A DNA stretch of 11,801 bases, from the UHGV virus genome UHGV-0074586. The stretch is one strand, 5' to 3'. The notes below the pieces were generated by a model. The model saw only the letters and a program-made list of their open reading frames with translations. It had not been told where the DNA came from and did not search any database. Made by a program: the position numbers and the translations under genes. Origin of the DNA: a virus. Shown here in pieces: positions 3,124 through 11,738 of this stretch. Positions within the stretch are counted from its first letter, which is position 1; every line of letters starts with the position of its first letter.

Positions 3124-4549
3124 TTTTTATGCGCCGCCCCATAGCATCGAGGCAGAGCAGGCGGTGATTGGTGGATTGCTTCTGGATGATGACAGCAGTG
3201 AGCGCGTCCAGAAAGTTCTGGCGATGCTGAAGCCTGACTCATTTTACAGCCGGCCACACAAAATCCTTTTCGAAGAAATAACCAGAATGCACCGGGAGCA
3301 AAAGCCAGTAGATGGCCTGACGCTTTTCGATGAGCTGGAGCGTAAATCGTTAACGGCGTCTGTTGGCGGTTTTGCTTATATCGCTGAGATCGCAAAGAAC
3401 ACGCCAAGCGCAGCAAACATCGTTGCCTATGCAATGCAGGTTCGTGAAACCGCAATGGAACGCTACGCCATCAACCGCATGACTGAAGCGACGGAATTGC
3501 TCTATTCCCGCAACGGAATGACTGCAACACAGAAGTACGAAGCTATTCAGTCGATTTTCACGCAACTGACAGACCATGCAAAAACCGGATCGCGTCGCGG
3601 CCTTCGCTCATTTGGTGAGGTCATGGAAGACTGGGTTAGCGACCTTGAGAAGCGATTTGACCCGTCAGGCGAACAACGAGGAATGAGCACAGGGATCCCA
3701 TCGCTGGACAGGATGCTGTCACCGAAAGGTCTGGTGAAAGGCTCTCTGTTTGTCATTGGCGCTCGCCCTAAGATGGGGAAAACGACGCTATACAGCCAGA
3801 TGGCAATCAATTGCGCAGTGCATGAGAAAAAGCCAGCTCTGATGTTCAGCCTTGAAATGCCAGGTGACCAGATACTGGAAAAACTGGTAGGGCAGAAGTC
3901 TGGTGTTAACCCGAATATTTTTTACCTTCCGGCGACAAATGACGCCGATGACGGCTATCAGGGTGATTACGATGGCGACTTCAACAGGGCGATCGAAACA
4001 GCAAATCGCTTGAGTGAAATCGACCTGCTTTACATCGACGACACGCCGGGATTATCTCTGGCTCAAATCGTCAGCGAAAGCCGTCGAATCAAGCGAGAAA
4101 AAGGATGTGTTGGCATGATTCTGGTCGATTACCTGACACTAATGACCGCTGAGAAGGCCGATCGCAACGACCTTGCTTACGGCATGATCACCAAAGGACT
4201 GAAGAACCTTGCCAAAGAGCTTGATTGCGTTGTTGTGCTTCTGACACAGCTTAACCGCGCACTGGAAAGCCGAACCAATAAACGCCCATTACCAAGTGAC
4301 TCACGAGATACAGGGCAGATTGAACAGGATTGCGATTATTGGGTGGGGATCCATCGTGAAGGTGCTTTTGATGACAGCGTTCCTCCTGGTGAAACCGAAC
4401 TAATCCTTCGCCTCAATCGTCATGGCAATACCGGCACGGTGTATTGCATACAGGCAAATGGCGCTATTTATGACACAGACCAACAGTCTGCTGAAATGCG
4501 CCGCCGTGAACGCGAGGAACCGCAGTCCAAGAAGAAAGGAGGGTTCTGA
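3113..4549 (+). CDS. DnaB-family replicative helicase (P22 gp12-type)
   Basis: 478 aa with a DnaB N-terminal signature (HSIEAEQAVIGGLLLD), Walker A GARPKMGKT and a RecA-like C-terminal core. ATG 3113 overlaps the O-like stop (3121..3123); GAGGGTG lies upstream. The ORF-track GTG at 3098 is less likely. Confidence 0.9.
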   Translation: MTDNFYAPPHSIEAEQAVIGGLLLDDDSSERVQKVLAMLKPDSFYSRPHKILFEEITRMHREQKPVDGLTLFDELERKSLTASVGGFAYIAEIAKNTPSAANIVAYAMQVRETAMERYAINRMTEATELLYSRNGMTATQKYEAIQSIFTQLTDHAKTGSRRGLRSFGEVMEDWVSDLEKRFDPSGEQRGMSTGIPSLDRMLSPKGLVKGSLFVIGARPKMGKTTLYSQMAINCAVHEKKPALMFSLEMPGDQILEKLVGQKSGVNPNIFYLPATNDADDGYQGDYDGDFNRAIETANRLSEIDLLYIDDTPGLSLAQIVSESRRIKREKGCVGMILVDYLTLMTAEKADRNDLAYGMITKGLKNLAKELDCVVVLLTQLNRALESRTNKRPLPSDSRDTGQIEQDCDYWVGIHREGAFDDSVPPGETELILRLNRHGNTGTVYCIQANGAIYDTDQQSAEMRRREREEPQSKKKGGF

Positions 4550-7441: not shown

Positions 7442-7626
7442 ACGCCACAATTCAAACGATACCAGAGCTTCTTATCCAGACACGAGGCAATCAGACCGAA
7501 GTGGCGAGGATGCTTTCCTGCGCAAGAGGAACAGTGCTCAAGTACAACCGAGACAGCAAAGGCGAGCTTCACGTAATAGTTAACGGCGTCCTGATGGTCA
7601 AACAGGGCAAGAGGGGAAGACGATGA
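7438..7626 (+). CDS. ninH: NinH
   Basis: 62 aa with the ...GNQTEVARMLSCARGTVLKY...VIVNGVLMV core matching lambda NinH. ATGA overlaps on both sides. Confidence 0.8.
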   Translation: MNATIQTIPELLIQTRGNQTEVARMLSCARGTVLKYNRDSKGELHVIVNGVLMVKQGKRGRR

Positions 7627-8111
7627 GCATAAGAGAACTAAACCTCACCAAAGAGCAGCACGAGTGGCTGAATGGCTGGCTTGAACTGTGGGGCGCATGG
7701 GTTTATTCAGGTCGTCTGGAAAAGCGCATGAGCAGCGTAATAGCGAAGTTCATGGAGAGCGTAGAGCCGGGAAGAGTTATGACAAGGCCAATGTGCAATG
7801 ATGATGATGGAATGTTGATTTCTCAGGTCGTCGATTCCGTCATGTACATTGACAAGAAAGCCTTTGGAATCCTCCTCAGCTACTACGCTCATGGCTCTTC
7901 CAAGCACGCCATTGCATCTTACTATCATCGCGTCGCAAGACCTCGCAAGATGTTATGCCGTGGCGGCGGGCGCATTCAAAAACCATCGCTCGCAACCTGT
8001 CGACGGGAAGTTGACGAAATCCTTAATGCCTCGTTGTTTATGATTTACCCGGTTCTGGATAGTGCGTTTAAAAACCGGAAACGTGTAGAGAAAATTAAAC
8101 ATGTAGCATAG
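7623..8111 (+). CDS. Q-like late-gene antiterminator (non-lambda Q type)
   Basis: 162 aa, last gene before the lysis region. WGAW...RPMCNDDDGMLIS...YYAHG motifs resemble the Q proteins of 933W/82-type phages, not lambda Q. Assigned from memory and position. Confidence 0.65.
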   Translation: MSIRELNLTKEQHEWLNGWLELWGAWVYSGRLEKRMSSVIAKFMESVEPGRVMTRPMCNDDDGMLISQVVDSVMYIDKKAFGILLSYYAHGSSKHAIASYYHRVARPRKMLCRGGGRIQKPSLATCRREVDEILNASLFMIYPVLDSAFKNRKRVEKIKHVA

Positions 8112-8117
8112 AACGTG

Positions 8118-8198
8118 TTGACATCATTGAGCAAATGAGCAACACTATTGGCATAAGCTGCCGTTAGTGACTCTTAAGTTGCAACGGTGGCTTTTTTT
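8118..8198 (+). promoter_or_regulatory. candidate late promoter (consensus -35 TTGACA at 8118..8123) followed by a hairpin plus T7 run (8157..8198)
   Basis: Perfect TTGACA 7 nt after the Q stop; no convincing -10. Stem GCTGCCGTT/AACGGTGGC (two G-U pairs, 17-nt loop) is followed by TTTTTTT ending 5 nt before tRNA 1. Confidence 0.3.
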
Positions 8199-8202
8199 AT
8201 TT

Positions 8203-8277
8203 GGGTCAGTCGTATAAAGGTCATTACTGAAGGCTGTTAACCTTCTTATCGTGGTTCGAGTCCACGCTGTCCCGCCA
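8203..8277 (+). tRNA. tRNA-Asn (anticodon GUU), phage-encoded
   Basis: Hand-folded cloverleaf: 7-bp acceptor stem with one T-T mismatch, perfect anticodon stem GAAGG/CCTTC with loop CTGTTAA, perfect T-arm CGTGG-TTCGAGT-CCACG, encoded CCA. The D-stem has only 3 pairs. Confidence 0.6.
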
Positions 8278-8282
8278 AATAT

Positions 8283-8358
8283 GCTGGTTTAGCTCCAATG
8301 GTAGAGCAGTCGCCTTGTAAGCGAATGGGTAGCGGTTCAAGTCCGTTAACCAGCACCA
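8283..8358 (+). tRNA. tRNA-Thr (anticodon UGU), phage-encoded
   Basis: Hand-folded cloverleaf: perfect acceptor stem GCTGGTT/AACCAGC, D-arm GCTC-CAATGGTA-GAGC, anticodon loop CTTGTAA, T-arm AGCGG-TTCAAGT-CCGTT, discriminator A and CCA. Confidence 0.7.
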
Positions 8359-8519
8359 TAACTGAGCCGTAGCCACTGGCTATCCTGAATTCATCAGTGA
8401 TAGTTATGCTGCGGCCTTCTACACATGACCTTCGTGAAAGCGGGTGGTTCAATTCTGCTGCCTTCTTCACGTTAAAAGAGGAATTAGGCTTCGAAAATGC
8501 AAAAACTTGCAAAAATGAC

Positions 8520-8548
8520 TTGAAAACGAGTTTTGAAACTGCATAATT
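8520..8548 (+). promoter_or_regulatory. sigma70-like promoter (TTGAAA, 16-bp spacer, CATAAT) preceded by phased A-tracts
   Basis: -35 at 8520..8525, -10 at 8542..8547 with a TG just upstream. The preceding 40 bp holds repeated TGCAAAAA/TTGAAAAC A-tracts at roughly helical phasing (8492..8526). Confidence 0.35.
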
Positions 8549-8630
8549 CCTATATGCTCGGACGTCAAAGGCGAAAGAGCTTACCCACCAGCGAAGATGC
8601 CTTGTGCGGAGCGGTGGGAAACACATTCAA

Positions 8631-8658
8631 GCCCTTGCAGAAATGCAGGGGCTTTTTT
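8631..8658 (+). terminator. strong rho-independent terminator in the leader upstream of the insertion operon
   Basis: 9-bp stem GCCCTTGCA/TGCAGGGGC (one G-U pair) with GAAA tetraloop, then TTTTTT. It lies 30 nt upstream of the first operon ATG and inside the ORF-track 5' extension that starts at TTG 8533. Confidence 0.7.
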
Positions 8659-8688
8659 ATTGGCTCAGTGCCACCAGGTGAACACCGT

Positions 8689-9240
8689 ATGCACACGGCG
8701 ATCATTTGCGCTTCCGGACCTTCCCTCACCCACGACGACTGCCAGAAAGCCATTGGCGCTGGATTACCCGTTATTGCGGTGAATTCTTCATGGCGCGCGG
8801 TGCCGGGATGCTCTCACATTTACGCGGGTGATCTGCGCTGGTGGGATGTGAACATTCCCGCGCTGCCCGATGGCCCCGAACGCTGGTCATGTAACCGGAG
8901 AGCACACACCCGATACGGCGTGAGCCTCTTCCCGACAGATACCAGCGGCACATTCAATTCGGGGCAGAGAGCAATCCTGTTCGCTCACTGGCTGGGTGCC
9001 AGTAGCATCATCCTGCTGGGCTTCGATTGCTCAATCTCAAACGGTAGTCACTGGCACGGCGATCACACAGTCCTCGATAACCCGACAGCAGCGAACGTAA
9101 AGCGCTGGCATGGCGAGTTTGCCCGGGTTGCGGCGCAGCTGCGTGGAAGCGTCAATATCATCAACAGCAGCCGCCAGACGGCGCTTAATTGCTTTCGTCG
9201 CTTACCTCTTGAAGCTGCGATCAGCGAGGTTACATGCTGA
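8689..9240 (+). CDS. hypothetical protein with Cst/GT42-like (DUF115/MptE-like) CMP-ulosonate transferase-fold signatures
   Basis: 183 aa from ATG 8689 (AGGTGA 7 nt upstream). IICASGPSL...PVIAVNSSW and FNSGQRAILFAHWLGASSIILLGFDCSISNGSHWHGDH parallel the GNGPSL, RCN, TSG...LGY...LSGIDFY and SHYIGH motifs of Campylobacter Cst-type sialyltransferases as I recall them. Fold-level inference only. Confidence 0.45.
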   Translation: MHTAIICASGPSLTHDDCQKAIGAGLPVIAVNSSWRAVPGCSHIYAGDLRWWDVNIPALPDGPERWSCNRRAHTRYGVSLFPTDTSGTFNSGQRAILFAHWLGASSIILLGFDCSISNGSHWHGDHTVLDNPTAANVKRWHGEFARVAAQLRGSVNIINSSRQTALNCFRRLPLEAAISEVTC

Positions 9241-10175
9241 ATCCTCCGATTTACATCGATGGCATGCTGGGAATGGGAGATACCATTTACCAGCGCGCTT
9301 TCGTCAAACAACTGCCTGCTGGGACATTCATTAAGACGGCATGGCCGGAGCTTTACGAAGATCTGCCGGTGAAAGTTGTCCGAAGTGACACCACGCTCAG
9401 AACGCAGCGTAAAAATGAGTTTCGCAGTTCGGCAAAGTTTTATCCGCCGCCATCGCCACGACAGACGAAGCGAATATTTTACGGACCGTATGATCTGCGG
9501 CGCGGTTCGATATTTGATGCGATGCGACGCCAGTTCGGCGTAACGCCAGCAGCGCTTGATTTGCCATCCTTTGGCCCGTCGCAGTTTACGCACCAAAAGC
9601 CGATCGCCGTTATCCGTCCGGCAACGGTTCGTTCTGAATGGCGTAGCGACTCCCGAAACCCTGACCCCGATTACCTCCTGCGCGCATCGAGAATCCTGCG
9701 GAAACATTTCTGCGTGATTAGCGTTGCTGATTTGCAGGACGGGGAAGAGTGGCTGGTGGGCGAAGAACCAGAGGCGGATCTGAAAATGCACGCTGGCGAG
9801 CTCAATATCAAAGAGCTGATGCGCCTGGTTGAGCATGCCGCTGTCGTGGTTACGCCTGTTGGCTGGGCGCTGCCCGCTGCCATTGCGTACAAAACACCTG
9901 TTTACGTTGTCGCTGGTGGGCGCGGTGGGCATAACGCTCCCGAGATAGTCACCGATCCGGCGATGGATTTATCCCGCGTTGGCTGGGCAATCCCGGACAA
10001 TTATTGTCGCTGCGAAGCGTGGGATCACCATTGCGACAAACGCATCTTCAACTTTGATTCAAAATTCGAGACATGGCTGAATGAAGTCGTTTTATCAGGA
10101 ACTGAACAGCGGGCTGGTATTCCTCCCGGAGCTGGGCATCGGTCGTTATCCGGTTCCGGCATCACGCCCGTATGA
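9234..10175 (+). CDS. hypothetical protein with glycosyltransferase family 9 (ADP-heptose:LPS heptosyltransferase)-like fold; 3' boundary uncertain
   Basis: ATG overlaps the upstream stop (ATGCTGA). N-terminal IYIDGMLGMGDTIYQRAFVKQL and C-terminal ELNIKELMRLVEHAAVVVTPVGWALPAAIAYKTPVYVVAGG follow the GT9 pattern, but the canonical DTGPMHLAAA motif is replaced by TPVGWALPAAIA. The ORF runs 95 nt into the next gene. Confidence 0.45.
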   Translation: MLNPPIYIDGMLGMGDTIYQRAFVKQLPAGTFIKTAWPELYEDLPVKVVRSDTTLRTQRKNEFRSSAKFYPPPSPRQTKRIFYGPYDLRRGSIFDAMRRQFGVTPAALDLPSFGPSQFTHQKPIAVIRPATVRSEWRSDSRNPDPDYLLRASRILRKHFCVISVADLQDGEEWLVGEEPEADLKMHAGELNIKELMRLVEHAAVVVTPVGWALPAAIAYKTPVYVVAGGRGGHNAPEIVTDPAMDLSRVGWAIPDNYCRCEAWDHHCDKRIFNFDSKFETWLNEVVLSGTEQRAGIPPGAGHRSLSGSGITPV

Positions 10176-10690
10176 CGAGCAGTATTTCGCGAAGTATCAG
10201 CAGCTTGCCGACACCGAAACGGGCAGAGCCTTAACGCAATCCCGTATTGAGCTGGTGGCGCGCCATTTTCACGGTCCTGTTCTCGACGTTGGTATCGGTG
10301 CCGGTCAGTTCGTCTCTACCCGACCGGGAACGCTTGGGTATGACGTTAATCCGGCTGGTATCGCCTGGCTGAACGAGCGGGGCGCATTCGCTGACCTCTA
10401 GTCAGGGGCGCGCGCTGACGATGTGGGATGTCCTGGAGCACATCGACGAGCCGGAGCTGGCGGTACAGCAGGCTACAGAGTTTGTTTTCGTGTCGATCCC
10501 CATTTTTACCGATGCCGGAGACATTCTTCGCTCGCACCATTTCAGGAAGAACGAGCACATCTGGTATTTCACTGACGACGGTATTAAGCGCTGGTTTGCA
10601 GAGCAGGGCTTCGAATGCGCTGAACAGAACACAATCGAATGCCAGTTAGGGCGTAAGGGCGTCGCTTCGTACGCTTTCCGCCGCGTTTAG
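10081..10690 (+). pseudogene. class I SAM-dependent methyltransferase split by a frameshift near 10395..10402
   Basis: ORF 10081..10401 carries motif I (VLDVGIGAGQF) and an acidic beta-2 end (GYDVNP). ORF 10421..10690 in another frame carries the DVLEH motif. The frame upstream of 10421 reads ...SSQGRALTMWDVLEH, so one indel just before the TAG at 10399..10401 would restore a single protein of about 200 aa. Confidence 0.6.
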
Positions 10691-10954: not shown

Positions 10955-11278
10955 ATGAAGATGCCAGAAAAACATGACCTGTTAGCCGCCATTCTCGCGG
11001 CAAAGGAACAAGGCATCGGGGCAATCCTTGCGTTTGCAATGGCGTACCTTCGCGGCAGATATAATGGCGGTGCGTTTACAAAAACAGTAATCGACGCAAC
11101 GATGTGCGCCATTATCGCCTGGTTCATTCGTGACCTTCTCGACTTCGCCGGACTAAGTAGCAATCTCGCTTATATAACGAGCGTGTTCATCGGCTACATC
11201 GGTACTGACTCGATTGGTTCGCTTATCAAACGCTTCGCTGCTAAAAAAGCCGGAGTAGAAGATGGTGGAAATCAATAA
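10955..11278 (+). CDS. S: holin S (S107/S105 dual-start class I holin)
   Basis: 107 aa, essentially lambda S as I recall it. Met1-Lys2-Met3 dual-start motif at 10955..10963 and a CCCC...GGG stem upstream. Confidence 0.95.
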
Positions 11279-11738
11279 TCAACGTAAGGCGTTCCTCGAT
11301 ATGCTGGCGTGGTCAGAGGGAACTGATAACGGACGACAGAAAACCAGAAATCATGGTTATGACGTCATTGTAGGCGGAGAGCTATTCACTGATTACTCTG
11401 ATCACCCTCGCAAACTTGTCACGCTAAATCCGAAACTCAAATCAACAGCCGCCGGACGCTACCAGCTTCTTTCCCGTTGGTGGGATGCCTACCGCAAGCA
11501 GCTTGGCCTGAAAGACTTCTCTCCGAAAAGCCAGGACGCTGTGGCATTGCAACAGATTAAAGAGCGTGGCGCTTTACCGATGATTGACCGCGGTGATATT
11601 CGTCAGGCAATCGACCGTTGCAGCAATATCTGGGCTTCACTGCCGGGCGCTGGTTATGGCCAGTTCGAGCATAAGGCTGACAGCCTGATTGCAAAATTCA
11701 AAGAGGCTGGCGGAACGGTCAGAGAGATTGAGGTATGA
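11262..11738 (+). CDS. R: endolysin R (lytic transglycosylase)
   Basis: 158 aa, essentially lambda R as I recall it ([39 protein letters not shown]...). Start overlaps the end of S as in lambda. Confidence 0.95.

Follow-up and report, generated by a model that had tools for sequence, protein, structure and literature searches.

Positions 8448-8660 of the virus genome UHGV-0074586 (11,801 nucleotides; this whole stretch is hereafter called the window) probably (probability about 0.78) hold a displaced, orphan Q-dependent late module, which would have entered a phage-21-type late region by mosaic recombination alongside a transferase cassette. The module would be composed of the last 32 codons of a Q-like gene (PHROG 753, DUF1133-related, predicted Q21 fold), a late promoter embedded in the 3' end of that gene, a -10-like element close to the transcript start, a small 5' hairpin and a tR'-type terminator. 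Most likely it came along as a passenger when the cassette was transferred and does not serve the transferases as a regulator of their own, and ordinary lambdoid mosaicism would account for the arrangement seen in the window. All functional statements made below about the module are drawn from homology and consensus.

A Q cassette is defined as a Q gene with the promoter PR' directly after it, a pause element with an adjacent Q binding element (QBE), an intrinsic terminator and the late genes (10.1101/651190). Q loads at the QBE and the sigma-dependent pause element (SDPE) and the Q-loaded polymerase then resists terminators; otherwise transcripts end at tR' (10.1101/651190). PR' itself is constitutive and gives a short terminated RNA (PMC7547250). 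An earlier note on this DNA had likened the promoter, leader and terminator to the PR'-6S RNA-tR' unit of lambda. This was right in kind, because ~100 related loci show the same layout after an intact Q-like gene, the native copies sitting directly 3' of a Q-like antiterminator gene and before lysis genes, but the working late switch of the window is a Q21 cassette ~400 bp upstream and the cognate Q-like gene is absent.

Native copies of the module and a second orphan

The segment from the recombination joint to the end of the terminator (8444-8657) had 93.5% identity with part of Citrobacter phage Omnitron and 93-97% identity with segments of E. coli prophages, present in 10 of 5,426 complete genomes. 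In these native prophages the first ~100 nt of the match form the 3' end of a gene annotated as encoding a 227-amino-acid (aa) "hypothetical protein", located immediately after rusA, the classical position of Q. Downstream were found either tRNA-Asn and a holin gene (TOK-001, EC2001) or a three-gene transferase cassette and a holin gene (LHM10-1, 730V1). We then fetched 96 further loci using an alignment of the 227-aa protein. Across the ~100 related loci the order was an intact Q-like gene, the promoter, the 5' hairpin, a terminator that varied, and then either tRNA and holin genes or the transferase cassette; ~22 loci with an intact Q-like gene have the same transferase cassette after the module.

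Among the IMG/VR contigs carrying exactly the window-type leader, an intact Q-like gene lay directly upstream in 31 of 32. The sole orphan (L106) shares the joint of the window and is 99.5% identical to it over 8356-9008. A second, independent orphan was found in E. coli I3 (L007 3506-4180), where a lambda-type Q gene, its pR' (TTGACT-17-TAAATT) and a terminator are followed ~370 nt further on by the module, which is joined there at the -35 (window position 8520), has a 1-nt deletion in its terminator and is followed by an identical cassette. Since the joints of the window and of I3 differ, the cassette appears to be what was transferred, the module having come along because it adjoins the first gene.

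Measured against the definition of a Q cassette, the Q gene stands immediately upstream in 31 of the 32 contigs and in most E. coli prophages that have the module, and the native loci have a sigma-70 promoter directly after it (10/12 consensus positions in the window, geometry invariant in 98 loci, activity predicted), an intrinsic terminator between this promoter and the late genes, and late (lysis) genes downstream. The window has all of these apart from the Q gene, of which 32 codons are left, and is therefore an orphan member rather than a complete cassette.

Promoter and start-site elements

The TTGAAA-N16-CATAAT element of the earlier note was recovered in place, and its geometry recurred across relatives: the spacer between -35 and -10 was 16 nt long in 98 of the 98 loci scored (42 with distinct promoter sequences). 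The best-conserved columns in these loci were the -35 CTTGAAAA, a spacer motif AGT(T/A)(T/A)TGAA (AGTTTTGAA), a TG just before the -10, and the -10 itself. Taken alone, the promoter match is at chance level, with 2 sites in 1.8 kb vs 1.5 expected in the consensus scan. The decisive evidence for the promoter, as for the terminator, is conservation, promoter geometry and terminator position both recurring in ~100 related loci. The spacer contains a second TTGAAAC (8533-8539), a candidate Q-binding repeat, and the conserved TTGAAAAC...AGTTTTGAAAC arrangement across -35 and spacer is a candidate Q binding element.

Upstream, TGCAAAAA occurs at 8498 and 8508 and TTGAAAAC at 8520, with A-tracts at 8494, 8501, 8511 and 8523. 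The phased A-tracts and repeats previously described at 8492..8526 are thus present, but their phasing is only approximate (spacing roughly 10 bp) and the block is the 3' end of the truncated Q-like gene. As this remnant ends inside the -10, its TAA stop falling within the hexamer, the A-tracts are both coding sequence of the truncated gene and promoter-upstream DNA. The A-rich block just 5' of the -35 is retained even in relatives with non-coding DNA at this place.

The same double use of sequence was visible in the protein alignment. The Q-like protein ends in KDLKTSFETA (window positions 8514-8546; columns 227-236 of alignment A2), and the codons for this C-terminal tail also make up the -35, spacer and -10 of the protein's own late promoter; homologues ending before the tail retain the same DNA motif as non-coding sequence. 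The promoter, not the protein, is probably what keeps this tail conserved.

Downstream of the -10, a hexamer TA(T/C/G)GCT was placed invariantly, 5 variable nt 3' of the -10, in 98 of 98 loci. Its A (A8554 in the window) is the predicted start site, because the usual distance from -10 to start is 7 nt. By analogy with the SDPE of Q cassettes (10.1101/651190), TATGCT may serve as a pause element. Two other uses of this sequence were considered and rejected. Taking TATGCT as the true -10 and the second TTGAAA as its -35 leaves a spacer of 14 nt; a leaderless peptide from ATG 8554, in a frame that in the window is open into the 183-aa gene, is contradicted by relatives that have TACGCT, TAGGCT or an early stop.

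The start site is followed by a hairpin in which GCUC/GAGC forms the outer stem, separated from an inner stem by internal loops of 3-4 nt on either side. Its 29-nt core ATATGCTCGGACGTCAAAGGCGAAAGAGC, or a variant with 1-2 changes, was found 9 nt past the gene end in 72 of 104 loci, the remaining loci following the same plan with a different small hairpin. All 8 class-A sequence variants folded to the same shape, with inner stems CGUC/GGCG, CGUC/GACG, GCU/AGC or GC/GC, and class-B relatives including ST64B have a simpler GCUU-loop-AAGC hairpin.

The 29-nt core was also exact in a locus whose Q-like protein is only 28% identical. Prophage LR-28 (Q-like protein 28% identical, unrelated flanks) has every base in common from the spacer TGAAA across the -10 as far as +27, so that the start-site block is 100% conserved despite a Q-like protein identity of only 28%. 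It is conceivable, though doubtful, that a fourth Q family, unstudied and with the Q21 fold, loads at TA(Y)GCU together with the two-tier hairpin, the hairpin in the nascent RNA being part of the recognition signal. If so, the orphan copy would make the late operon of a Q21 phage switchable in trans by Q-like proteins of co-resident prophages.

Terminator

The scan returned only one terminator, at 8629-8654, which reads AAGCCCTTGCA-GAAA-TGCAGGGGCTT followed by TTTTATTG. Its core stem pairs 8631-8639 with 8644-8652 and extends to 11 bp over the full hairpin, with the T6 run at 8653-8658. The 9-bp GC-rich hairpin with GAAA loop and T6 run that had been placed at 8631..8658, 30 nt before the operon (first ATG at 8689), was confirmed at these coordinates. 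The hairpin folds at -18.4 kcal/mol, and a terminator with an 11-bp stem appeared in 1.3% of dinucleotide shuffles of the region. Nearly all window-type modules have an identical hairpin, and in other relatives terminators of unrelated sequence replace it functionally at the same relative position; of the structures in the earlier note, the terminator is supported. A terminator was detected in 65 of 71 distinct modules, a lower bound as the detector missed visible terminators (mismatched stems, or a wrong promoter anchor in a few loci); the stem ended between +56 and +168 in 55 of them, and at least 28 different hairpin sequences were represented.

The Q-like protein family

The remnant at the left end of the module translates as ...FNSAAFFTLKEELGFENAKTCKNDLKTSFETA*, which corresponds to the C-terminal end of the 227-aa protein (32 aa aligned by tblastn, 84% identical); a tblastn search for the Q-like gene across the window recovered only 8448-8543. 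The full-length protein matches PHROG 753, "anti-termination protein Q-like", with an E-value of 1e-57. Searches with the single sequence and with a profile against Pfam, NCBIfam and PDB sequences gave no match (in Pfam none at E <= 1, neither PF06530 nor PF03589), so that by sequence the protein falls outside the Q21/Q933W family PF06530. Among the relatives some bear a DUF1133 label, and 3 of 16 match that family weakly, as does the Q21 protein of the window. Only PHROGs and a fold search placed the 227-aa protein. Its model has, with moderate confidence, the three-dimensional fold of Q21, which would make it a structural relative of Q21 outside the three Q sequence families described by Yin et al. 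(10.1101/651190). Relatives include Sb49 of ST64B and proteins of ZF40, ENT47670, and Klebsiella, Yersinia and Serratia phages. Our literature searches found no papers on DUF1133, no paper on the late promoter of this Q-like family, and no experimental test of any of its members.

Late switch of the window and recombination joint

Upstream of the module, the window carries in order a gene for a KilAC-domain antirepressor (Pfam ANT/Rha), ybcO, rusA, ninH and then the 162-aa Q gene. The phage 21 record OL657228 annotates the pR' -35, a two-subsite QBE, the -10, start, SDPE and tR', followed by tRNA-Asn and tRNA-Thr; we transferred these coordinates to the window by alignment (1 mismatch in the stretch). 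Positions 8100-8420 are ~99% identical to phage 21, as is the whole switch from the Q gene to tR' (7623-8202), and the tR'(21) hairpin folds at -20.2 kcal/mol (z = -4.56). With this cassette intact, the phage is already equipped with a full late switch, lying ~400 bp 5' of the orphan module. The Q21 subsite TGAGCA occurs at 8128 and 8136, and a search of 8440-8700 for it found none, leaving the orphan module without Q21 binding subsites. Since its own Q is missing as well, the Q of this phage supplied in trans should not load at the 8520 promoter.

Phage 21 homology reaches as far as ~8420 and that to Sf6, CUS-3 and HK620-type phages as far as ~8447, resuming only near the holin gene. Relative to these phages, ~8448 to ~10800 is thus an insertion, with its left recombination joint at ~8447. 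The joint region (~8421-8447) coincides with the "bsq3 boundary sequence" annotated in phage CUS-3, which fits module exchange at conserved boundaries in lambdoid and P22-like phages.

Proposed mechanism

The following steps are inferred from the established properties of Q cassettes (10.1101/651190; PMC7547250). RNA polymerase with sigma-70 would start at about A8554, with or without phage induction. In the absence of a cognate Q-like protein and of a Q21 binding site, transcription would terminate at 8653-8660 and release an RNA of 101-106 nt that carries a hairpin near its 5' end and the terminator stem at its 3' end, a counterpart of lambda 6S RNA and StxS. Only polymerase modified by Q21 at the real pR' (8118-8160, with Q21 loading at 8126-8160) would pass tR'(21), the tRNA genes and the second terminator, so that the transferase and lysis genes would be expressed.

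Several points weigh against the orphan-module interpretation. Promoter activity and the ~101-106 nt RNA are predictions, and TATGCT and the TTGAAA(A)C repeats are only candidates, the former for a pause element and the latter for a Q-binding site. The assignment of the Q-like family as antiterminators rests on gene position, the PHROG label and a model of moderate confidence (mean predicted local distance difference test score, pLDDT, of 66). Alignment with Q21 by hhalign covered only 19 columns, an N-terminal motif LTxxQxxWxxxxLxxWG, at a probability of 8%, which is not significant. Finally, the I3 orphan has its -35 partly replaced and one pair fewer in its terminator, defects by which the module may be decaying or neutral rather than active.

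Comparison with known late modules

The closest likeness is to the cassette of phage 21. Like the native loci, it consists of an antiterminator gene, a constitutive sigma-70 promoter, a -10-like element at the transcript start and a strong terminator within ~60-170 nt, followed by tRNA and lysis genes. The 227-aa protein has the predicted Q21 fold, and short direct repeats lie between -35 and -10, where Q21 has its QBE. The two differ in that there is no detectable similarity in cis, TTGAAAAC and TTGAAAC being 13 bp apart in the module whereas Q21 uses two adjacent 8-bp TGAGCA subsites; in the protein, which at 227 aa is outside PF06530 and PF03589; in the overlap of the module promoter with the gene end, and the lack of a Q gene in the window copy; and in the conserved RNA hairpin after the start, of which none is annotated in phage 21.

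With lambda PR'-6S-tR' and StxS (PMC7547250) the module would share a constitutive late promoter, nearby termination, a short RNA in the lysogen and late genes reached only by Q-modified polymerase, all of these being predicted for the module. Its Q family and sequence are different, however, and in the window it is a second tandem copy ~400 bp 3' of a functional pR'-tR', without its cognate Q and with an RNA that is a prediction here. IsrK of Gifsy-1 (PMC4825925) is a small RNA whose gene likewise has its own promoter and intrinsic terminator immediately 3' of a Q-like antiterminator gene, with partial read-through downstream. However, IsrK acts in trans on the translation of anrP, a role of which the module shows no sign; the window gave no match to the Rfam model for IsrK, and Gifsy-1 is not among the 29 phage records encoding a relative of the 227-aa protein.

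By analogy, the module would be a functional counterpart of the pR'-tR' units of phage 21, lambda and 82, while belonging by sequence to none of them. Two modest points are new: the cis-signature of a Q family not studied so far, with a predicted Q21 fold, and a natural tandem of two late modules of different specificity. Reading the promoter, leader and terminator as a product of mosaic recombination, not as a dedicated riboswitch, avoids a mis-annotation. It also describes a late-control site for a widespread, unstudied Q-like family (ST64B Sb49, ZF40, Omnitron and many Enterobacterales prophages). The window, L106 and E. coli I3 would be natural late operons with two tandem pR'-tR' modules, and as such substrates for questions of Q-loading specificity and terminator resistance.

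Leader structure and alternative explanations

An alternative that we consider unlikely is a moron-type unit, in which the 8520-8547 promoter drives the transferases in the lysogen by partial read-through of the terminator, the latter acting as an attenuator that sets a low constitutive level. The promoter, leader and terminator do accompany the cassette in two Q backgrounds that are unrelated (the window with L106, and I3), the first gene starts only 30 nt past the T-run, and a documented case of a PR'-type terminator that is partially read through into the genes beyond it is IsrK of Gifsy-1 (PMC4825925). However, the unit recurs throughout its family as the general late module, with tRNA and lysis genes after it in loci that lack the cassette; the terminator is strong (11-bp stem, -18.4 kcal/mol, T6); in I3 the promoter did not survive whole, as the joint there interrupts the -35; and we saw no ligand-sensing or anti-terminator alternative structure and no covariation in the leader.

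Selection of the 101-106 nt terminated RNA for a function of its own, as a trans-acting small RNA like StxS, would explain why the module was retained, and short RNAs derived from PR' can gain regulatory roles (PMC7547250; PMC4825925). The predicted 5' hairpin and 3' terminator with U-tail are a typical stable build of Hfq-type RNAs, and the window-type leader is nearly invariant across the 32 viral contigs. This near-invariance reflects close relatedness, however, and the wider family replaces everything between the 5' hairpin and the terminator, the leader body being freely exchanged between lineages. No Rfam family, seed or target was identified for the RNA, and we regard this explanation as quite improbable.

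Within the leader body, the second stem of the earlier note, CCCACC (8584..8589) with GGTGGG (8613..8618), has its sequences at these positions and they are able to pair, but relatives break it without compensation: the commonest sequence is GGTGTG, others are GGCGGG or CCGTGGG, each disrupting a pair, and in yet other relatives the whole segment is replaced. The entire 109-nt leader folds at -42.7 kcal/mol (z = -3.65). In an alignment fold of 14 window-type leaders the covariation term was -0.01, because these leaders are too similar, and RNAalifold preferred a different long-range pairing for the 5' half. The leader fold contained no predicted anti-terminator pairing competing for a terminator arm. 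The covariance-model search that had been suggested matched the leader to no family: Rfam gave only the two tRNAs in the window (E <= 1), and only tRNAs and sub-threshold noise in the related loci (ten searched at E <= 0.1, ST64B at E <= 1). A riboswitch, or a metabolite- or protein-sensing attenuator dedicated to the transferase operon, as also proposed earlier, is hardly credible, because, structured and directly 5' of the operon though the leader is, an identical leader lies 5' of tRNA-Asn and holin genes in at least 14 distinct loci without the operon, and there is no Rfam match, no covariation, a middle stem broken in relatives and no competing anti-terminator pairing. A place for the leader among the riboswitches or described cis-regulatory RNAs is not supported.

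Two minus-strand open reading frames (ORFs) in this region, 8246-8626 and 8565-8753, were rejected, the first overlapping the tRNA genes and neither having support. A subset of relatives (L055 ~3719-3870; L056, L062, L065, L067, L069, L008 ~4049-4170, L021, L023) has a longer leader of ~110 nt after the 5' hairpin, with the sequence GGTGAG...CTCACC, CCGCCTAGTTGGT...CTCCAACC...GCTGAGAGGT. This longer leader is recognisable across E. coli, Yersinia and Xenorhabdus prophages; it had no Rfam match, and its stems are apparently compensated.

Feature coordinates and downstream genes

Table 1. Features of the window in the late region, by position.
Feature	Coordinates	Strand	Description
Q21-type antiterminator gene, 162 aa	7623-8111	+	Pfam Phage_antitermQ, E = 8.8e-25; ~98% DNA identity to the phage 21 Q region
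Phage-21-type late promoter cassette	8118-8202	+	-35 8118-8123; QBE 8126-8141; -10 8141-8146; start 8153; SDPE 8154-8160; tR' 8155-8202
tRNA-Asn	8203-8277	+	ARAGORN, Rfam tRNA model; between the real tR' and the orphan module
tRNA-Thr	8283-8358	+	ARAGORN, Rfam tRNA model; between the real tR' and the orphan module
3' remnant of PHROG-753 Q-like antiterminator gene	8448-8546	+	Last 32 codons and TAA stop (8544-8546)
A-tracts and TGCAAAAA repeats	8494-8519	+	Candidate UP-like element; also encodes ENAKTCKND
Sigma-70-type promoter (predicted)	8520-8547	+	-35 TTGAAA 8520-8525, 16-nt spacer, -10 CATAAT 8542-8547; consensus scan 10/12
TATGCT, -10-like hexamer (TAnnnT)	8553-8558	+	Overlaps predicted start A8554; candidate sigma-dependent pause element
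5' two-tier hairpin	8556-8581	+	GCUC-GGA-CGUC-AAA-GGCG-AAA-GAGC; -9.1 kcal/mol
Middle stem CCCACC/GGTGGG	8584-8618	+	CCCACC 8584-8589, GGTGGG 8613-8618; -13.5 kcal/mol in the window; conserved structure not supported
Intrinsic terminator (tR' equivalent)	8629-8660	+	11-bp stem (9 core pairs), GAAA loop, T6-A-TT tail
183-aa MptE-like protein gene	8689-9240	+	PHROG 4603 "alpha-2,3-sialyltransferase"; Pfam/PHROG matches; first cassette gene, AGGTGA ribosome-binding site before ATG 8689
Gene for 313-aa protein of unknown function	9234-10175	+	PHROG 6804
SAM-methyltransferase gene, frameshifted	10081 to ~10695	+	Pfam/PHROG matches; probable pseudogene
Holin gene	10955-11278	+	Pfam Phage_holin_3_1
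Putative lysis gene	11262-11738	+	No Pfam match

Compared with its intact counterparts in E. coli I3 and 730V1 (204 aa), the third gene of the cassette, for an S-adenosylmethionine (SAM) methyltransferase, has lost 5 bp near 10400 and is thereby divided into two ORFs, 10081-10401 and 10421-10690. In a Klebsiella grimontii prophage (L015 3917-4112), the small RNA STnc100 was matched by Rfam (104 bits) ~230 nt downstream of the late promoter module. The pair of 183-aa and 313-aa genes recurs between late module and holin gene in ~22 related loci (e.g. L005 4243-5729), a position matching that of stx in Stx phages.

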